NCBI GenBank assembly: GCA_016201765.1
Contig: JACQCE010000062.1
Coordinates: 11,419 to 75,418 of the forward strand
Length of the DNA stretch: 64,000 nucleotides
Reading direction: 5' to 3'
DNA from: Nitrospirota bacterium
GTDB lineage: Bacteria; Nitrospirota; Nitrospiria; JACQCE01
The notes beneath the pieces were generated by a model. The model saw only the letters and a program-made list of their open reading frames with translations, had not been told where the DNA came from and did not search any database. The number at the start of each line of letters is the position of its first letter. Position 1 is the first letter of the stretch. Below are positions 15,111 through 20,676 of the stretch, piece after piece. Made by a program: the position numbers and the translations under genes.

Positions 15111-15839
15111 TTACCGACCCGCCGCCTCGCGCATCTGGCGGATGGTCTCTGTGTAATTGTTGCTGCCGAAGATCGCCGAGCCGGCCACGAAGATCGTCGC
15201 CCCGGCTTCGGCCAGGAGTTTGACGTTGTCCGGTTTCACGCCGCCGTCGACCTCCAGCTCGACCGACAGTCCCCGCGCATCGATGATGGCGCGCGCCTGC
15301 CGGACCTTCTCCAGCGCCTGCGGAATGAACCGCTGGCCGCCGAACCCCGGATTGACCGACATAATCAGCAGCAAGTCGGCTTCGGAGAGCATTGGCTCAA
15401 CCAGATTCAGGGGCGTGGAGGGATTGAGCGTCACGCCCGCCTTGACGCCCCGCTCCTTGATCATCTGGAGCGTCCGGTGCAGATGGGGACACGTTTCCAC
15501 ATGGACGGTCAAATAGGTGCTCCCGGCGTCGGCAAACTCCGGGATCAGCCGCTCCGGCTCGACGATCATCAGATGCACGTCGAGCGGCAGCCGCGTCGAC
15601 TTCCGGGCCGCTTCGACCACCACCGGCCCGACGGTCAGGTTCGGCACGAACCGGCCGTCCATCACGTCAATGTGGATCAGATCGGCGCCGGCCGCCTCCA
15701 CCGCCTGGATCTCGTCCGCCAGCCTAGAGAAATCGGCCGAGAGGATCGACGGGGCAATGCGTACGGGCCGAACCGGCCGCGGCGAGTGTGACGAGCCGGG
15801 CTTCCCAGGCTTCCCAAGCTTTGATGACGACGCGCTCAT
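15111..15839 (-). CDS. rpe: ribulose-phosphate 3-epimerase
   Basis: PSILSADF...HIDVMDGRFVPN...HLMI...GVTLNPSTP...MSVNPGFGGQ...VDGG are the Rpe signatures. Start at the internal ATG (MSASSSK) that overlaps the rsmB stop (ATGA). Confidence 0.9.
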   Translation of the reverse strand: MSASSSKLGKPGKPGSSHSPRPVRPVRIAPSILSADFSRLADEIQAVEAAGADLIHIDVMDGRFVPNLTVGPVVVEAARKSTRLPLDVHLMIVEPERLIPEFADAGSTYLTVHVETCPHLHRTLQMIKERGVKAGVTLNPSTPLNLVEPMLSEADLLLIMSVNPGFGGQRFIPQALEKVRQARAIIDARGLSVELEVDGGVKPDNVKLLAEAGATIFVAGSAIFGSNNYTETIRQMREAAGR

Positions 15840-17311
15840 GATTCCCTCCCCTTGACCAGCCTGGCGGCGAAAAAGCCGTCCATCCGCTCGCCTTTCAGCA
15901 CGGTGGAAAGATAGCCCTCCTGGGTCAGCAGCGTGGCCGCCGAGTCGGGCAGCAACGGCCGGGGATGCTCCAGCCGGAACGTCCGCTGCCGCTCCAGAAA
16001 TGCCTCGACCACCGACTGATTTTCCTCGGGCTCGGTCGAGCAGGTGCTGTAGACCAGGACGCCGCCCGGCTTGAGCAACGGCGCGATATTCGACAGGATC
16101 GCCAGCGCCGTCCGGGCCGAGTCGTGAATCGACCGGGCCGTCTTGATCCACTTCCCCTCCGGATGGCGGCGCAACACGCCGAGGCCTGAACAGGGCGCAT
16201 CGACCAAAATACGGTCGAACTTCATCCCCTCGGCCGTCGGCAGCCGCTTGGCCGCATCGGCCGCCATGGTCCGGATGATGGTCACGCCCAGCCGCCGGTT
16301 GTTCGCCTCCACCACCGCCAGCCGTTCGGGATTTCGGTCGACGGCCAGCACCGAGCCGCGGTTGTCCATCAACTCGGCCATCTCGGTCGCCTTGCCGCCC
16401 GGCGCCGCGCAGGCGTCGAGCGCCGTGTCACCGGGTTTCGGCGCCAGCAGCAACGGCACCAATTGCGACGCTTCATCCTGCACGTAGAACCAGCCCGAGG
16501 CGTAGCCGGGCAGGCCGGTCACCGCCCCGTCATGCTCGACATGAAGGCCGGCCGGGGCATGGGCGCAGCGCGTCGACGCAATGCCCTCCTCCTGCAGGAT
16601 GCGTTGATAGTCGGCCACGCCGAGCTTGAGCCGGTTGACGCGGATCGTCAGCGGCGCGGGCTCGTTGTTCGCCCGGCAGAGCGCGATCGTCCGCTGCGAC
16701 CCGTAGCGTTTGAGCCAGCGCCTGACCAGCCAGGTCGGATGGGAATAGTTGACCGAGATGTGCTCGATCGGCTGTTGCAGGAGATCCGGCAGCGTCCATT
16801 CGTGCCGGCGGATGATCAGGTTCCGCAACAGGGCGTTCACCAGCGGCGCGCTCTTGGCGCCCAGCCGCGCCTTGGTCAACTCCACCGACTGGTCGACCGC
16901 CGCGTAGTCAGGCACCCGCTTGAGCCAGAGCAACTGGTAGGCGCCCAACCGCAGAATCTGCTTGAGGACCGCCTGACGGGTATACGGCGTCTGATGCGCC
17001 ACCTGCTGCAGCCCCCAATCGAGAAAAAGCCGATGGCGCAAGACGCCATTGACCAGTTCATGGAGCAGGGCGCGGTCATCGGATGACAGAGGGGATGACA
17101 GAGGGGATGACAGAGGGGATGACAGGGGGGATGAGAGCGGGGTGGCGCCCTGCCGGGCCGCCTGATCGATCGCCTGCTGCGCGGTCGTCTTGCCCGTGTC
17201 GATTGCGAGCAACGCGGTGACGGCCGCCTGCCGGGCCGGCGTGCCGCGATACGTTGCCGACGGGCTTTTTTTTGAGACACGCGTTGCGGTCATGGCAGCG
17301 GATCTCCGCAC
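15836..17311 (-). CDS. rsmB: 16S rRNA (cytosine967-C5)-methyltransferase RsmB/Sun
   Basis: N-terminal NusB-like domain. C-terminal SAM-dependent methyltransferase with PCSGLGV and DAPCSG-type motifs. Contains a (PLSS)5 repeat. Confidence 0.85.
   Translation of the reverse strand: MRRSAAMTATRVSKKSPSATYRGTPARQAAVTALLAIDTGKTTAQQAIDQAARQGATPLSSPLSSPLSSPLSSPLSSDDRALLHELVNGVLRHRLFLDWGLQQVAHQTPYTRQAVLKQILRLGAYQLLWLKRVPDYAAVDQSVELTKARLGAKSAPLVNALLRNLIIRRHEWTLPDLLQQPIEHISVNYSHPTWLVRRWLKRYGSQRTIALCRANNEPAPLTIRVNRLKLGVADYQRILQEEGIASTRCAHAPAGLHVEHDGAVTGLPGYASGWFYVQDEASQLVPLLLAPKPGDTALDACAAPGGKATEMAELMDNRGSVLAVDRNPERLAVVEANNRRLGVTIIRTMAADAAKRLPTAEGMKFDRILVDAPCSGLGVLRRHPEGKWIKTARSIHDSARTALAILSNIAPLLKPGGVLVYSTCSTEPEENQSVVEAFLERQRTFRLEHPRPLLPDSAATLLTQEGYLSTVLKGERMDGFFAARLVKGRES
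17081..17140. repeat. 12-bp tandem repeat (GGATGACAGAGG x3 plus 2 degenerate copies) inside rsmB
   Basis: Five head-to-tail units. Encodes PLSSPLSSPLSSPLSSPLSS on the minus strand. Confidence 0.8.
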
Positions 17312-17317
17312 TCGTCC

Positions 17318-18322
17318 TCAGACACGGGCGGGCTCACCGAGCATCGATCTCACCTTGACCGGGTGGCCGGCCAGAAATTCCGCCGCCGTCATCCGCCGGC
17401 GGTCGGGAATCTGCAACTCCTGAATCGTCACCCAATCGCGGCCGGTCGCCACGTCGATTCCGCCCGTCCCGCCGTGTCCGGCTGGATGCACCGCCGCGAT
17501 CATCCCCGGCGGCCATTGCCCCGCGCCGCGCGGCGTCACCGAGGCCCGCCAGATCCGCCACGGCTGCTCAGCGTAACTGGTCCAGGCCCCCGGCCAGGGA
17601 TCGGTGCCACGCACCAGATTCACAATCTCGCGCGCCGGACGGTCCCAGAAAATCTGCCCGTCGTTTTTATTCATAAGCGGCGCCATTGTCGCACGGGCAT
17701 GCTCCTGCGGCGTCGCCGCGACGGCCCCTCGCGCCCAAGCGTCGATCGTGTCGACCAGCAGCGAGGCGCCGACGCGCGACAGTCGGTCGGCCAGTTCCCC
17801 TGCCCGCTCATCCGGTTTGATATCCACCGCCTGCTGCATCAGCATCGGCCCCGTATCCATCCCCTCGTCCATCAGGATCGTGGTGATGCCGGTCCGTTCC
17901 TCTCCGCGAATGATCGCCCATTGAATCGGCGCCGCGCCCCGATAGGCCGGCAGCAGCGACGCATGAACATTGACGCAGCCTTTGGGCGGAATCTCCAGGA
18001 TGGCCTTGGGGAGAATCTGTCCGAACGCCACGACGACGATCAGGTCGGGCCGCTGCGCCCGGATCTGCTCAACCGCCTCGGGCGCCCTCACCCGCTCCGG
18101 CTGCCAGACCGGAATCCCCAGCCGCACCGCCGCGTCTTTCACCGGCGGGGACGCAACCGCCTGGCCGCGCCCTTTTGGCCGGTCAGGCGCCGTTACCACG
18201 CCGATCAATTCAAAACCGGTGGCGAGCTGTTCATCAACCCCGCCCGCCCGACGAATCGGGCGGGCCAGGGCCTCCAGACTCGGCACGGCGAACGCCGGCG
18301 TTCCCATGAAGAGCACACGCAT
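17318..18322 (-). CDS. fmt: methionyl-tRNA formyltransferase
   Basis: MRVLFMGTPAFAVPSL...formyl-transferase N-domain (HASLLPAYRGAAPIQWAI) and C-terminal domain. Confidence 0.9.
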   Translation of the reverse strand: MRVLFMGTPAFAVPSLEALARPIRRAGGVDEQLATGFELIGVVTAPDRPKGRGQAVASPPVKDAAVRLGIPVWQPERVRAPEAVEQIRAQRPDLIVVVAFGQILPKAILEIPPKGCVNVHASLLPAYRGAAPIQWAIIRGEERTGITTILMDEGMDTGPMLMQQAVDIKPDERAGELADRLSRVGASLLVDTIDAWARGAVAATPQEHARATMAPLMNKNDGQIFWDRPAREIVNLVRGTDPWPGAWTSYAEQPWRIWRASVTPRGAGQWPPGMIAAVHPAGHGGTGGIDVATGRDWVTIQELQIPDRRRMTAAEFLAGHPVKVRSMLGEPARV

Positions 18323-18366
18323 TGCATCCGTCGATAGGAGTGGACGATCAGCCGCCGCGCGGTGCG

Positions 18367-18933
18367 TCACAACGCGCCGGCTGATTCCTCCCGTTCATCA
18401 TGATCATGATCGCACGTGTGATCATGCACGTGCGTCGTCCGCATCCGCTTGCGATGGCGGCGCAGAAACATGTTCCGTTTCAAACTGCTGATCCGATCGA
18501 TCAACAACCGGCCGTTGAGATGATCAGTTTCATGCTGAAAGAGCCGGGCCAGCAACCCCTCCCCCTCCAGCGTCACCACCTTCCTCGTGCGATCCATCCC
18601 CTGGATCTTCACCCAGTTGGCCCGGCTGACCACCACCCGGTAATCGGGCACGCTCAAGCAACCCTCATCATCCGACTGGGCGCCGCGTCGCTCCAGAATC
18701 ACCGGATTGATGAGCGCCTGGGGTTGCCGCGCGCCGTCCGTGTGGCCGATGTCGTAGACGAACAACCGCAGCGGCACGCCGATCTGCGGCGCGGCCAGAC
18801 CGATGCCCGGCGCGTCATACATCGTCTCGATCATATCCTCAATGAGCCGGTCGATCTCGGCGTCCACGCGCTCGACCGGCCTGGCCGGTTGCCGAAGCAC
18901 CGCCTCGGGAAACTCAACAATGGGTCGTATCAT
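18367..18933 (-). CDS. def: peptide deformylase with His/Asp-rich C-terminal tail
   Basis: GIGLAAPQIG, EGCLSVP and HETDHLNG metal-binding motifs. C-terminal tail HVHDHTCDHDHDE. Confidence 0.9.
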   Translation of the reverse strand: MIRPIVEFPEAVLRQPARPVERVDAEIDRLIEDMIETMYDAPGIGLAAPQIGVPLRLFVYDIGHTDGARQPQALINPVILERRGAQSDDEGCLSVPDYRVVVSRANWVKIQGMDRTRKVVTLEGEGLLARLFQHETDHLNGRLLIDRISSLKRNMFLRRHRKRMRTTHVHDHTCDHDHDEREESAGAL

Positions 18934-19030
18934 GTGACTGGTGGCTTGATGTTTGCACTCATCCCACACCGCGCAGCGTCGACATTCTGACACGCTTCCC
19001 GGCCAAAATCAACCGACTCAGATACAAGAG

Positions 19031-19148
19031 AAGGTGGCTTGGTGGTAAGGTCGCTGGGTAGCCAGGGAGAGATCATTGGAGCGCTGGGTGGCGCCCATGA
19101 TCACGGAGTTCCCCAGCCACCTAACCACCCAGCCACCGAGCTACCTTC
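19031..19148. repeat. palindromic array of degenerate 8-bp units (GGTGGCTAGGT family), copy 2
   Basis: aaggtggcttggtggtaaggtcgctgggtagccaggg ... ccccagccacctaaccacccagccaccgagctacctt. Directly upstream of the tRNA-fMet promoter. Confidence 0.55.
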
Positions 19149-19157
19149 TTACTTTCC

Positions 19158-19187
19158 TTGACACCATCAAGATCGCTCTGCTAGCAT
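19158..19187 (+). promoter_or_regulatory. sigma70-like promoter TTGACA-N18-TAGCAT for the split tRNA-fMet
   Basis: -10 hexamer ends 6 nt before tRNA position 1 (19193). Confidence 0.45.
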
Positions 19188-19226
19188 GCGGTCGCGGGGT
19201 GGAGCAGCCTGGTAGCTCGTCGGGCT

Positions 19227-19890
19227 CAATTCCGCGAGAACAACGTGGAAACCAAACTCAAGGGAGATATCGCAGAGCAGGCGGCCACTCTTCAAGCCCT
19301 GAAGCGTGGATGGGGAGTGCTCAAGCCCGTGGGGGACCGGTTGCCGTATGACCTGGTCCTCGATGTGGCGGGAGTCCTCGTCAAAGCGCAGGTCAAGTCT
19401 GCCTGGCTTGATGAGTCTTCTCAGAATCATGTCATCGACAATCGTCGCACCAAAACGAACCGTCGCGTCATGATTCGAGAGACCTATCAGCCCGAGGATT
19501 TTGACTTTGCGCTGGCTTACCTGCCTGAGTTAGATCTGTTTTATGTCTTCCCGGTCGAGGTTTTCATTGGCTACGGCAGTGAAATCCATTTGGTCGAAGC
19601 CGACAAGCGGCAGCGGAAGCCCCGGTCTTCAGGCTATCGCAACGCTTGGGAGTTGATCTCGCAATGGGCTGCGCAGAAGGAAACTTCTGTGCGATATCCT
19701 GTCAAATTCGGGGAAGCCGGTGATTCGGTAATCCCGAGCCAAGCGCTGGCAGCCGCAAGGCCGCTGGCGAAGGTGTAGAGACTTAATGGCAGGCACCCTC
19801 CGGTTCGGCCGAGGGTGAAGAGAAAGTCCAGACTGCAAACTGGTCCATCGTAGCGAACGCGGGCCAGGCAGCGAAAGCTGTAGCGGTACG
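19227..19890 (+). mobile_element. 664-bp intron in the anticodon loop of tRNA-fMet (probable group I intron), carrying a homing-endonuclease-like ORF
   Basis: The boundary 5' exon ...U | intron ... G | C 3' exon is the only placement consistent with the group I rule (U before the 5' splice site, terminal G of the intron). The 3' portion contains a GNRA hairpin (CAGCGAAAGCUG). The Synechocystis tRNA-fMet group I intron encoding I-Ssp6803I is a precedent. Confidence 0.65.
19245..19778 (+). CDS. intron-encoded PD-(D/E)XK-fold nuclease (putative homing endonuclease, I-Ssp6803I-like)
   Basis: 177-aa ORF entirely inside the intron. GTG start. Motif E(QAA)...PYDLVLDVAGVLVKAQVK fits a restriction-endonuclease-like D...(E/Q)xK core. 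Confidence 0.6.
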   Translation: METKLKGDIAEQAATLQALKRGWGVLKPVGDRLPYDLVLDVAGVLVKAQVKSAWLDESSQNHVIDNRRTKTNRRVMIRETYQPEDFDFALAYLPELDLFYVFPVEVFIGYGSEIHLVEADKRQRKPRSSGYRNAWELISQWAAQKETSVRYPVKFGEAGDSVIPSQALAAARPLAKV

Positions 19891-19934
19891 CATAACCCGA
19901 AGGTCAGAGGTTCAAATCCTCTCCCCGCAACAAT

Positions 19935-19970
19935 AAGGGCCAGGAGAAGTTTCCTGGCCCTTATTATTTC
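19935..19970 (+). terminator. rho-independent terminator after tRNA-fMet exon 2
   Basis: Stem AAGGGCCAGGA / TCCTGGCCCTT (11 bp) with a 6-nt loop, followed by ATTATTT. Confidence 0.6.
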
Positions 19971-20142
19971 ACCAGTTACGATTTACAACACTTCGCATGA
20001 CTGCACACCCGAGCACTCGCCGTTATCCGCATCTCAATTGACAAGCCTCGTTTCTCTGGTATCTTAAAAATACGTCGGCCATGCGGGCGGAACAGGACTG
20101 CCGGTCGCCGGGTCATCGACGAGACGATCAAAGGAAGGTGGC

Positions 20143-20676
20143 ATGGCCGGTCAGTCCCGCCCATCGATCAGCAACGCCCATTTGAACGCCTTCGTGCAGC
20201 CGGCCATTCATGTGCTCGCCACCATGGTCGGCATCGCGGCCCAGGCCGGCCCGCCCCGGAAACATTCGGCCATCACGGACGCGGAAGCCGTGACGGTGAT
20301 GATCGGGATCAAAGGCGACTATACCGGGACCATCCTGTTCCGATTCAGCGAGCGGCTGGCCTGCCGGATCGTCAAAAATCTGATCAGCCCCGACCGGGAG
20401 ATCGAGGAGCTCAACAGCGACGTGCAGGATGCGCTCGGAGAACTGGCCAACGTCATTGTGGGAAACGCGACCGGCCATCTCGATGCGCTCGGCATTCAAG
20501 CCCTGATGACCCCTCCCATTATTACCATGGGCACAAACGTGAAATTTGTGTTTCCTGAGACTGACGAACTCGTGGTCGTACCGCTGGCCACGCAGGACGG
20601 AGAAATCGAGATGAACGTGGCCTTTGCGATGCAGGGGCCGCCAATGGCCGATGATGAACGACGCCACCCCCGCTGA
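20143..20676 (+). CDS. cheX: chemotaxis phosphatase CheX/CheC-like protein
   Basis: CheX-family fold signature (GIKGDYTGTILFRFSERLACRIV...ELANVIVGNA). 177 aa. RBS AGGAAGGTGG. Confidence 0.7.
   Translation: MAGQSRPSISNAHLNAFVQPAIHVLATMVGIAAQAGPPRKHSAITDAEAVTVMIGIKGDYTGTILFRFSERLACRIVKNLISPDREIEELNSDVQDALGELANVIVGNATGHLDALGIQALMTPPIITMGTNVKFVFPETDELVVVPLATQDGEIEMNVAFAMQGPPMADDERRHPR

Follow-up and report, generated by a model that had tools for sequence, protein, structure and literature searches.

The split initiator tRNA gene

We analysed a 64,000-nt stretch of DNA from a Nitrospirota bacterium (GenBank assembly GCA_016201765.1, contig JACQCE010000062.1, positions 11,419 to 75,418 of the forward strand; hereafter the window), which contains a tRNA-fMet gene split by a group I intron. 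The intron in turn carries an open reading frame (ORF) for an endonuclease of the I-Ssp6803I family. The parts of the gene, numbered from the first letter of the window, are as follows.

19193-19226, plus strand: tRNA-fMet exon 1, 34 nt, comprising tRNA nucleotides 1-33 plus one additional D-loop nucleotide; the last base is U33
19227-19890, plus strand: 664-nt group I intron of class 'fMet.2Ug', inserted between tRNA nucleotides 33 and 34, supported by ARAGORN, Rfam RF00028 and comparison with the relative L082
19245-19778, plus strand: homing-endonuclease ORF, 177 aa, GTG start, I-Ssp6803I family; residues 1-148 form the nuclease domain
19891-19930, plus strand: tRNA-fMet exon 2, 40 nt, beginning with the anticodon C34-A35-U36 and ending with discriminator A73

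The joined exons make a 74-nt tRNA that ARAGORN types as tRNA-Met(CAT), and in intron mode the same program recognises the split gene where it lies, reporting i(35,664). Default ARAGORN misses the split gene and reports a tRNA-Val elsewhere as the sole tRNA in the window, with no other initiator tRNA gene in the 64 kb; the Rfam tRNA model is blind to the split gene as well. CCA is not encoded at the 3′ end of the gene. Because default tRNA finders miss the split gene, this metagenome-assembled genome (MAG) would seem to have no tRNA-fMet, a practical point for its annotation, in which the ORF is labelled merely 'endonuclease'.

A first-pass annotation, made from the sequence alone, had read the two halves as an initiator tRNA, the insert as a group I intron that splits the anticodon loop between positions 33 and 34, and the ORF as an I-Ssp6803I-like PD-(D/E)XK nuclease. 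All four proposals hold: the first by the intron mode of ARAGORN and the initiator marks of the joined tRNA, the second by an Rfam match and covariation in 79 introns, the third by the junction U33/C34, the only placement giving U(-1) and ωG and one fixed by a related locus (L065), and the fourth by matches to PF11645 and to the I-Ssp6803I sequence together with a D...QxK core.

Group I core, splice sites and covariation

The Rfam model Intron_gpI (RF00028) matches positions 19650-19842 with a score of 57.5 bits (E 5.7e-12; gathering score 50). Since this alignment ends at 19842, 48 nt before the true 3′ end, and misassigns P1 and P9, we built a comparative structure model by hand and checked it against 79 aligned homologous introns, of which 63 bear the ORF and 16 do not. 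Rfam's own 'P1' and 'P9' assignments were dropped in favour of this model, which comprises the following elements, all on the plus strand.

19223-19228: P1 5′ strand, GGCU/CA, with the 5′ splice site at the slash; pairs with UGGGCU at 19665-19670
19234-19239: 5′ strand of the extended P1 stem, GCGAGA; pairs with 19657-19662, with the endonuclease ORF in its loop
19657-19670: 3′ strand of the extended P1 (19657-19662) and internal guide sequence AUGGGCU (19664-19670)
19671-19692: P2 hairpin, 9 bp, GAAA tetraloop, seen also in the minimum-free-energy (MFE) fold
19698-19704 with 19787-19793: P3, from the Rfam alignment, covariation and MFE fold
19708-19713 with 19732-19737: P4, with J3/4 (AAU); enclosed by P3
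19716-19729: P5, enclosed by P3
19738-19774: P6/P6a/P6b, with a GCAA loop; enclosed by P3
19778-19784: P7 5′ strand, with A19779 bulged
19794-19817: P8 hairpin, from Rfam, covariation and MFE fold
19824-19829: P7 3′ strand, AAGUCC, completing the guanosine-binding helix
19832-19890: P9 three-way domain, with P9 (19832-19835 with 19884-19887), P9a (19840-19867) and P9b (19868-19881, GAAA)

Across the 71 modelled pairs and 79 introns, 95.4% of the cells are canonical, and sliding the 3′ partners by 1-3 columns as a control reduces this proportion to 32-41%. Compensatory double changes occur in 41 of the 71 pairs, and the window's own P1-P9b model contains no non-canonical pair (0/71). In addition, free-energy folding of 19650-19895 independently recovers P2, P3, P4/5, P6a/b, P8, P9a and P9b in both the MFE and the centroid structures.

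The alignment supports the model helix by helix. The extended P1 has six pairs, five of which show compensatory changes; P2 positions are paired in 64-79 of the 79 introns, with up to six pair types each; and P3 and P6a covary, as does each of P9, P9a and P9b, where the centroid fold agrees. P4 is nearly invariant, its four outer pairs never varying. Every position of P7, which together with P3 forms the pseudoknot, is paired in all 79 introns, with one covarying pair (UA in 61, GC in 17 and CG in 1).

The splice sites are defined by the same alignment. At the 5′ splice site, the U19226·G19667 wobble is present in 79/79 introns, and the adjoining P1 pairs are canonical in 59-79 of them. The guide sequence AUGGGCU is the partner both of the end of exon 1, in P1, and of the CAU of exon 2, in P10; specifically, P10 consists of 3 bp between CAU (19891-19893) and AUG (19664-19666), paired in 73-79 of the 79 introns. 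The intron closes with A-C-G, its terminal guanosine (ωG) being 19890; every related intron likewise has a G before CAT. U33/C34 is the sole junction that gives both U(-1) and ωG, and it is identical in 79/79 related introns; in L065, where the intron starts with T, it is unambiguous. The locus therefore shows a P3-P8 core above the family threshold, a U·G pair in P1, an ωG and a P10, all of them structural features of a group I intron. We rejected an alternative in which CAAUUC (19227-19232) pairs with GAGUUG (19650-19655), since it places a U-A rather than a U·G at the splice site and clashes with the covarying extension of P1.

By its insertion between nucleotides 33 and 34 of an initiator tRNA, the intron belongs to class fMet.2Ug, also termed the '33/34' tRNA intron (10.1101/2020.01.27.920355; PMC13011429). 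The literature counts four long-known types of tRNA intron in bacteria, this class among them, and assigns all four to subgroup IC3 (10.1101/2020.01.27.920355).

The endonuclease ORF

The ORF sits inside the intron, within the loop of the extended P1 stem. Its product matches Pfam PF11645 (PDDEXK_5) over profile positions 1-137 of 138 (E 2.3e-49, 167 bits against a cut-off of 26.1) and the sequence of I-Ssp6803I (PDB 2OST) over residues 3-148 (phmmer E 3.1e-67); NCBIfam gives no match for it. A PD-(D/E)XK-type core (D ... Q/E-x-K) is present. Specifically, residues E11, D36, Q49 and K51, reportedly assigned as catalytic by Zhao et al. 2007, are the same in 2OST and invariant among 19 aligned homologues. 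Furthermore, in all 70 columns that are invariant across these 19 sequences (the window's included), the window's ORF keeps the shared residue.

The protein is under strong purifying selection, since the ratio of nonsynonymous to synonymous substitution rates (dN/dS) is about 0.08 (0.07-0.10) against six relatives with unsaturated dS, the closest copy (L088) among them. The ratio was computed for codons 2-137, the part of the ORF that does not overlap ribozyme helices.

From about codon 138 on, the codons double as the ribozyme strands P1′, P2, P3, P4, P5 and P6 (19657-19778). ISQ is encoded by the 3′ strand of the P1 extension, W141-A142 (UGGGCU) by the guide sequence, AQKETS by P2, PVKFGEA by P3-J3/4-P4 and IPSQA by P4′-P6, and the stop codon UAG lies within J6/7. 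W141 and A142 are invariant in the homologue alignment. As about 40 codons are shared with the ribozyme, the conserved motifs W141-A142 and PVKFGEA reflect constraints on the RNA. The stop codon itself moves between homologues, lying in J2/3, L6a, J6/7 or J7/3: among 59 ORF-bearing relatives, 22 stop in J2/3 (149-151 aa, much like the 150 aa of Synechocystis), 17 stop at the window's position (the window included), nine stop 8 nt beyond it and the rest stop in the P6a loop (L6a). Given this variable position, residues 150-177 are best read as dispensable read-through into the ribozyme, with no added domain.

Filled and empty sites in relatives

Relatives of the host were found through the closest deformylases (Def), and their contigs were compared with the window. 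In L082 and L083, where Def is 96% identical, gene order matches that of the window on both sides and an uninterrupted tRNA-Met(CAT) lies at the same spot. L082, the closest relative recovered, has flanks 87.2% and 85.2% identical to the window's at the nucleotide level, and its alignment with the window breaks at 19228/19891, the intron boundaries, so that precisely the intron stretch is absent. Its tRNA-fMet equals the window's joined tRNA apart from nucleotide 1, and the anticodon arm is identical. L084, L086 and L087 (Def 84-88%) also have empty sites, with no group I match.

By contrast with these empty sites, the site in L088 (Def 86%) is filled by a 650-nt intron; identity to the window is 87.8% in the intron and only ~79% in the flanks. 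A homing element produces this pattern: the intron occurs in some close relatives and not in others, and it is better conserved than the DNA around it. The intron also differs from its surroundings in GC content, at 52-58% against 60-70% in the flanks.

As a separate observation, the uninterrupted tRNA-fMet genes of L082 (2020-2093, minus strand) and L087 (2190-2265) start with TGCGGGG, so that U1 could pair with A72, whereas the window's tRNA has the classical C1xA72 mismatch.

In a rival reading, the locus would be a decaying relic from late in a homing cycle, in a population already fixed for the intron, with the endonuclease dead and the ribozyme still splicing or with both degenerating. 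Such a history would suit a GTG start that has no clear ribosome-binding site, and a 28-aa tail past the I-Ssp6803I-length core that is plain read-through into the ribozyme; moreover, ORF-less introns do exist in 16 cyanobacterial relatives. We consider it improbable, because the ORF is of full length and has lost none of the residues invariant among the homologues, the low dN/dS extends to the closest copy, the window has no non-canonical pair among the 71 modelled in the ribozyme, and the empty sites in close relatives mean that homing targets are available.

Identity of the host tRNA

Direct reading of the joined tRNA reveals marks of a bacterial initiator: the CAU anticodon, the 1:72 mismatch (C1xA72), A11:U24 and three consecutive G-C pairs in the anticodon stem (G29-C41, G30-C40 and G31-C39). 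Over its full 74-nt length, the joined tRNA shares 93.2% identity with an E. coli tRNA-Met gene that lies in a tandem cluster beside amiC and occurs at a median of 4 places per genome. We take this cluster to be the initiator locus metZWV.

These observations bear on the proposal that the gene encodes an elongator tRNA-Met, a lysidine-modified tRNA-Ile2 (CAU), or a redundant or pseudo copy, in which case splicing would be of little consequence. The proposal draws on the fact that ARAGORN and RefSeq label CAU tRNAs merely as tRNA-Met, and on a view limited to 64 kb of the genome, where a further tRNA-fMet gene elsewhere is possible. It is very unlikely in the face of the initiator marks and the resemblance to the multi-copy E. 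coli cluster; in addition, relatives have an uninterrupted tRNA of matching sequence at the syntenic def-fmt locus, and the promoter is conserved. If it is true that the initiator gene is single, every translation initiation in this organism relies on ribozyme splicing.

Distribution across Bacteria

The protein database contains 1,942 homologues of the endonuclease that pass E <= 1e-5. Identity is 71-100% throughout the best 120, and NC10, Chloroflexota, Ktedonobacterales, Armatimonadota, Nitrospiraceae and cyanobacteria are among the named sources. The NCBI name 'group I intron-associated PD-(D/E)XK endonuclease' is already attached to homologues from Nitrospiraceae, Chloroflexota and Ktedonobacterales MAGs. 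With one genome per GTDB species, 300 stretches of DNA encode a relative; the taxonomic breakdown covers the best 80 of these 300, which fall into at least 12 phylum-level groups.

Groups among the best 80: Nitrospirota, Methylomirabilota, Chloroflexota (several classes), Acidobacteriota, Elusimicrobiota, Eremiobacterota, Bacteroidota
Further groups among the best 80: Armatimonadota, Chlamydiota, Actinomycetota, Pseudomonadota, 'Deltaproteobacteria', Cyanobacteria

The junction was located in 79 loci, and in 63 of them the gene lies within an intron of 602-693 nt with the common junction GGGCT/C...G/CATAACCC (slashes mark the splice sites). The introns cluster partially by lineage, for example in Ktedonobacteria, Eremiobacterota, Saprospiraceae and Blastocatellia. 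Across phyla, the introns of L001 (Nitrospirota) and L003 (Methylomirabilota) are 95% identical, with no detectable similarity between their flanks, and the intron of L004 (Nitrospira) is 99% identical to that of L003, with no match in the downstream flank, the only one that could be compared. Near-identical introns between unrelated flanks point to recent inter-phylum transfer, subject to correct binning. The first-pass annotation had suggested lateral transfer, which is supported by these introns and by the empty site in L082.

The same annotation had held that such introns were mainly cyanobacterial and that an apparently non-cyanobacterial host would be a new host range. The first part agrees with published statements on the endonuclease-bearing form, described as 'generally encoded in cyanobacteria' (PMC3384342) and, in complete genomes, as amounting to just two fMet 33/34 introns bearing a homing-endonuclease gene, both in Cyanobacteriota (PMC13011429). 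The second part was overstated and is weakened by the 300 GTDB species representatives, by the existing NCBI names, by a 2012 survey in which the distribution of PF11645 is patchy, suggesting horizontal gene transfer, with Ktedonobacter included (PMC3424549), and by an ORF-less fMet 33/34 intron from Bacteroidota in published supplementary data. In the literature searched, we found no systematic description of the element as one spanning Bacteria.

Three readings were rejected. Contig L002, labelled 'Patescibacteria', shares synteny in its flanks with Methylomirabilota (L003/L005) at 74-80% nucleotide identity and is probably mis-binned. The '1053-nt intron' of L080 is an artefact of the regular expression used, and ARAGORN gives 653 nt. 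At 10 loci, 'tRNA-Ser(cga)' or 'tRNA-Leu(caa)' reported by ARAGORN is a misparsed fMet junction with an intron beginning CGA or CAA.

An assembly or binning artefact, that is, a chimeric contig in which foreign intron DNA was joined to a Nitrospirota tRNA gene, might be suspected in a MAG whose intron has a lower GC content than its flanks, but its probability is negligible: the two halves of a single tRNA delimit the insert with single-nucleotide precision, and syntenic host genes flank it on either side; the def-fmt-rsmB/tRNA-fMet-intron arrangement recurs in L088, which was assembled independently from a different sample; and 63 other loci share the junction.

Free-standing relatives of the endonuclease

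Two sets of loci carry the endonuclease gene outside an intron. The first consists of 16 loci of the cyanobacterial set, in which the tRNA-fMet 33/34 intron is ORF-less and 243-245 nt long; the second consists of five phage contigs with free-standing homologues, 49-55% identical, in tRNA arrays.

ORF-less intron loci: L033 (2596-3480), L037, L044, L049, L054, L057, L059, L061-L063, L066, L070, L073, L076, L078, L079
Phage homologue, L089: 3001-3495
Phage homologue, L090: 2284-2782
Phage homologue, L091: 3001-3500
Phage homologue, L092: 3001-3497
Phage homologue, L093: 3001-3515

The named hosts of the ORF-less introns are Nostoc, Cylindrospermum and one member of the Leptolyngbyaceae. Downstream, past the terminator of the tRNA, there is an intact free-standing gene of the I-Ssp6803I family, at a distance of 85 nt in L033 and ~800 nt in L037. 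The 3′ end of the free-standing gene (…PVQFGEAG) reads as a decayed ribozyme P3-J3/4-P4, which suggests that the gene came out of an intron. The ORF-less intron would protect the adjoining tRNA gene from the neighbouring nuclease.

A scan of viral contigs (IMG/VR) found free-standing relatives only and no intron-borne copy. The 3′ ends of the phage homologues overlap or abut an uninterrupted phage tRNA-Met(CAT), and Rfam detects no group I core at the five phage loci. In most of these phage tRNAs, the anticodon stem differs from that of the initiator target in bacteria. It is possible that the free-standing phage genes are a source of, or a vehicle for, the endonuclease gene, and the free-standing loci may record the joining or parting of endonuclease gene and intron.

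Expression signals and neighbouring genes

The split gene is flanked by the following features.

15836-17311, minus strand: rsmB, upstream of the tRNA
17318-18370, minus strand: fmt, upstream of the tRNA
18367-18993, minus strand: def, upstream of the tRNA and on the opposite strand
19158-19187, plus strand: sigma-70-type promoter, TTGACA at 19158-19163, an 18-nt spacer and TG-extended TAGCAT at 19182-19187
19932-19965, plus strand: hairpin after the tRNA, 15 bp, -25.3 kcal/mol, z = -7.3, followed by AUUUCA

The putative promoter, proposed already in the first-pass annotation as TTGACA-N18-TAGCAT, matches the consensus at 10/12 positions and ends 6 nt ahead of tRNA +1; identical hexamers with identical spacing lie upstream of the uninterrupted tRNA-fMet in L082. 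The strong terminator that had been proposed after exon 2 is borne out as regards the hairpin, and not as regards the U-tract, which is weak and interrupted. The hairpin is probably an intrinsic terminator.

The labels of def, fmt and rsmB are Pfam labels taken from the same genes in relatives. Since def and fmt adjoin tRNA-fMet, the initiator tRNA gene lies beside the genes for formylating and deformylating its cargo.

Several further observations concern the surroundings. Within rsmB (minus strand), a 12-nt unit is repeated 5.2 times at 17081-17142 and encodes (SSPL)x5 in the N-terminal part of RsmB, a protein of 491 aa in the window against 467-473 aa in relatives. The 3′ end of def (18367-18450, minus strand) encodes a His/Asp-rich C-terminal tail (…THVHDHTCDHDHDEREE…) of peptide deformylase and overlaps the start of fmt; among the more distant matches there are deformylases of 169 aa, which, judged by length alone, would be too short for such a tail. 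A loose 8-nt repeat (CCCAGCCA, 4.2 copies, 76% matches) occupies 19112-19145, between def and the tRNA promoter. Past the tRNA hairpin, a second promoter-like site at 20038-20065 (TTGACA-N16-TATCTT, 10/12) lies ahead of a CheX-like ORF at 20143-20676.

Proposed mechanism and strength of the interpretation

We conclude, with a probability of about 0.9, that a mobile intron, a group I intron of the classical tRNA-fMet 33/34 type with a homing-endonuclease gene of the I-Ssp6803I PD-(D/E)XK family, occupies the initiator tRNA gene of a Nitrospirota bacterium. Splicing, cleavage and homing in this organism are predicted from its sequence, as follows.

Transcription from the gene's own promoter would yield a precursor of ~740 nt, in which the intron would fold into a P1-P10 group I core. 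The guide AUGGGCU (19664-19670) would pair with the end of exon 1, so that U33 (19226) forms a U·G wobble. The attack after U33 would come from an external guanosine, and ωG (19890) would then enter the P7 site; the CAU of exon 2 would pair with the same guide, forming P10, and ligation would produce a normal CUCAUAA anticodon loop. The ORF product, like I-Ssp6803I, would be expected to cut an intron-less tRNA-fMet gene in the region of the anticodon arm, and repair from the intron-bearing copy would spread the intron.

Several points weigh against this interpretation, or against parts of it. The presence and absence of the intron among relatives could instead mean precise intron loss in several lines, and the comparison between phyla is only as sound as the MAG binning behind the taxon labels. 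A terminator pattern scan with a T-run rule called no terminator after exon 2, because of the short U-run. The start codon is a GTG with no obvious Shine-Dalgarno sequence, just past a stem. In addition, the cleavage specificity is assumed from a homologue of high similarity (phmmer E 3e-67), and assignment of the window's intron to subgroup IC3 would follow from the homology of its class.

Beyond the locus itself, the element may be a currently active, Bacteria-wide homing element rather than a cyanobacterial curiosity, with the near-invariant initiator anticodon arm as its target and an endonuclease possibly derived from, or carried by, genes of phage tRNA arrays. The grounds are the species representatives (at least 300), the at least 12 phylum-level groups in the best 80, the 95% identical copies and the pair of filled and empty sites; we regard this wider proposal as tentative and give it somewhat less than an even chance. 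A target almost invariant in Bacteria would explain the crossing of phylum boundaries.

In natural populations, the locus provides a filled/empty pair that is clean. With the near-identical copies from other phyla added, it is a tractable system for the spread of a homing element between distant bacteria by way of an ultra-conserved target, and it adds I-Ssp6803I-like enzymes with natural sequence variation. The understanding of how such elements work is unchanged.

Comparison with known systems

The closest known system is the tRNA-fMet intron of Synechocystis sp. PCC 6803 (I-Ssp6803I; GenBank U10482), which shares with the window's intron the host gene, the site 33/34, U(-1) and ωG; the D...QxK core is the same in the window's ORF and in I-Ssp6803I (2OST). 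The two introns are also similar in size, at 655 nt in Synechocystis (PMC1995217) and 664 nt in the window. They differ in host phylum (Nitrospirota against Cyanobacteria) and in ORF length, which is 150 aa in Synechocystis (PMC1995217) and 177 aa in the window. The window's ORF is longer because the stop codon in J2/3 is missing and translation continues through P3-P6 to the UAG in J6/7. P6a and P9a are also longer in the window, in an indirect comparison of the RNAs.

The ORF-less tRNA-fMet 33/34 introns (244 nt in Nostoc and 303 nt in Bacteroidota) have the same site, guide and P2-P9b core as the window's intron, with which the ORF-less fMet introns align and share a covariation pattern, except that their L1 holds no endonuclease gene. 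The Nostocales have a free-standing endonuclease gene, located downstream of the tRNA gene, whereas the window's is intron-borne. Free-standing homing endonucleases that adjoin their target genes include the phage T3 gene 5.3/I-TslI pair and T4 SegB in a tRNA cluster. Both are free-standing, as are the Nostoc and phage relatives described here, in contrast to the window's gene.

The other classical tRNA introns, in tRNA-Leu UAA (34/35) and in tRNA-Arg CCU and Azoarcus tRNA-Ile2 CAU (36/37), all of subgroup IC3, occupy a different tRNA and position. They resemble the window's intron in having a compact core in the anticodon loop, GAAA tetraloops on P2 and on P9-domain hairpins, and a short P1/P10 formed from anticodon-loop nucleotides. 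Most of them have no endonuclease gene; where one is present, in the tRNA-Arg intron, it is of the LAGLIDADG type (PMC13011429). Among these systems, the window's intron is a known type of mobile element, first described in Synechocystis and present here in another phylum.

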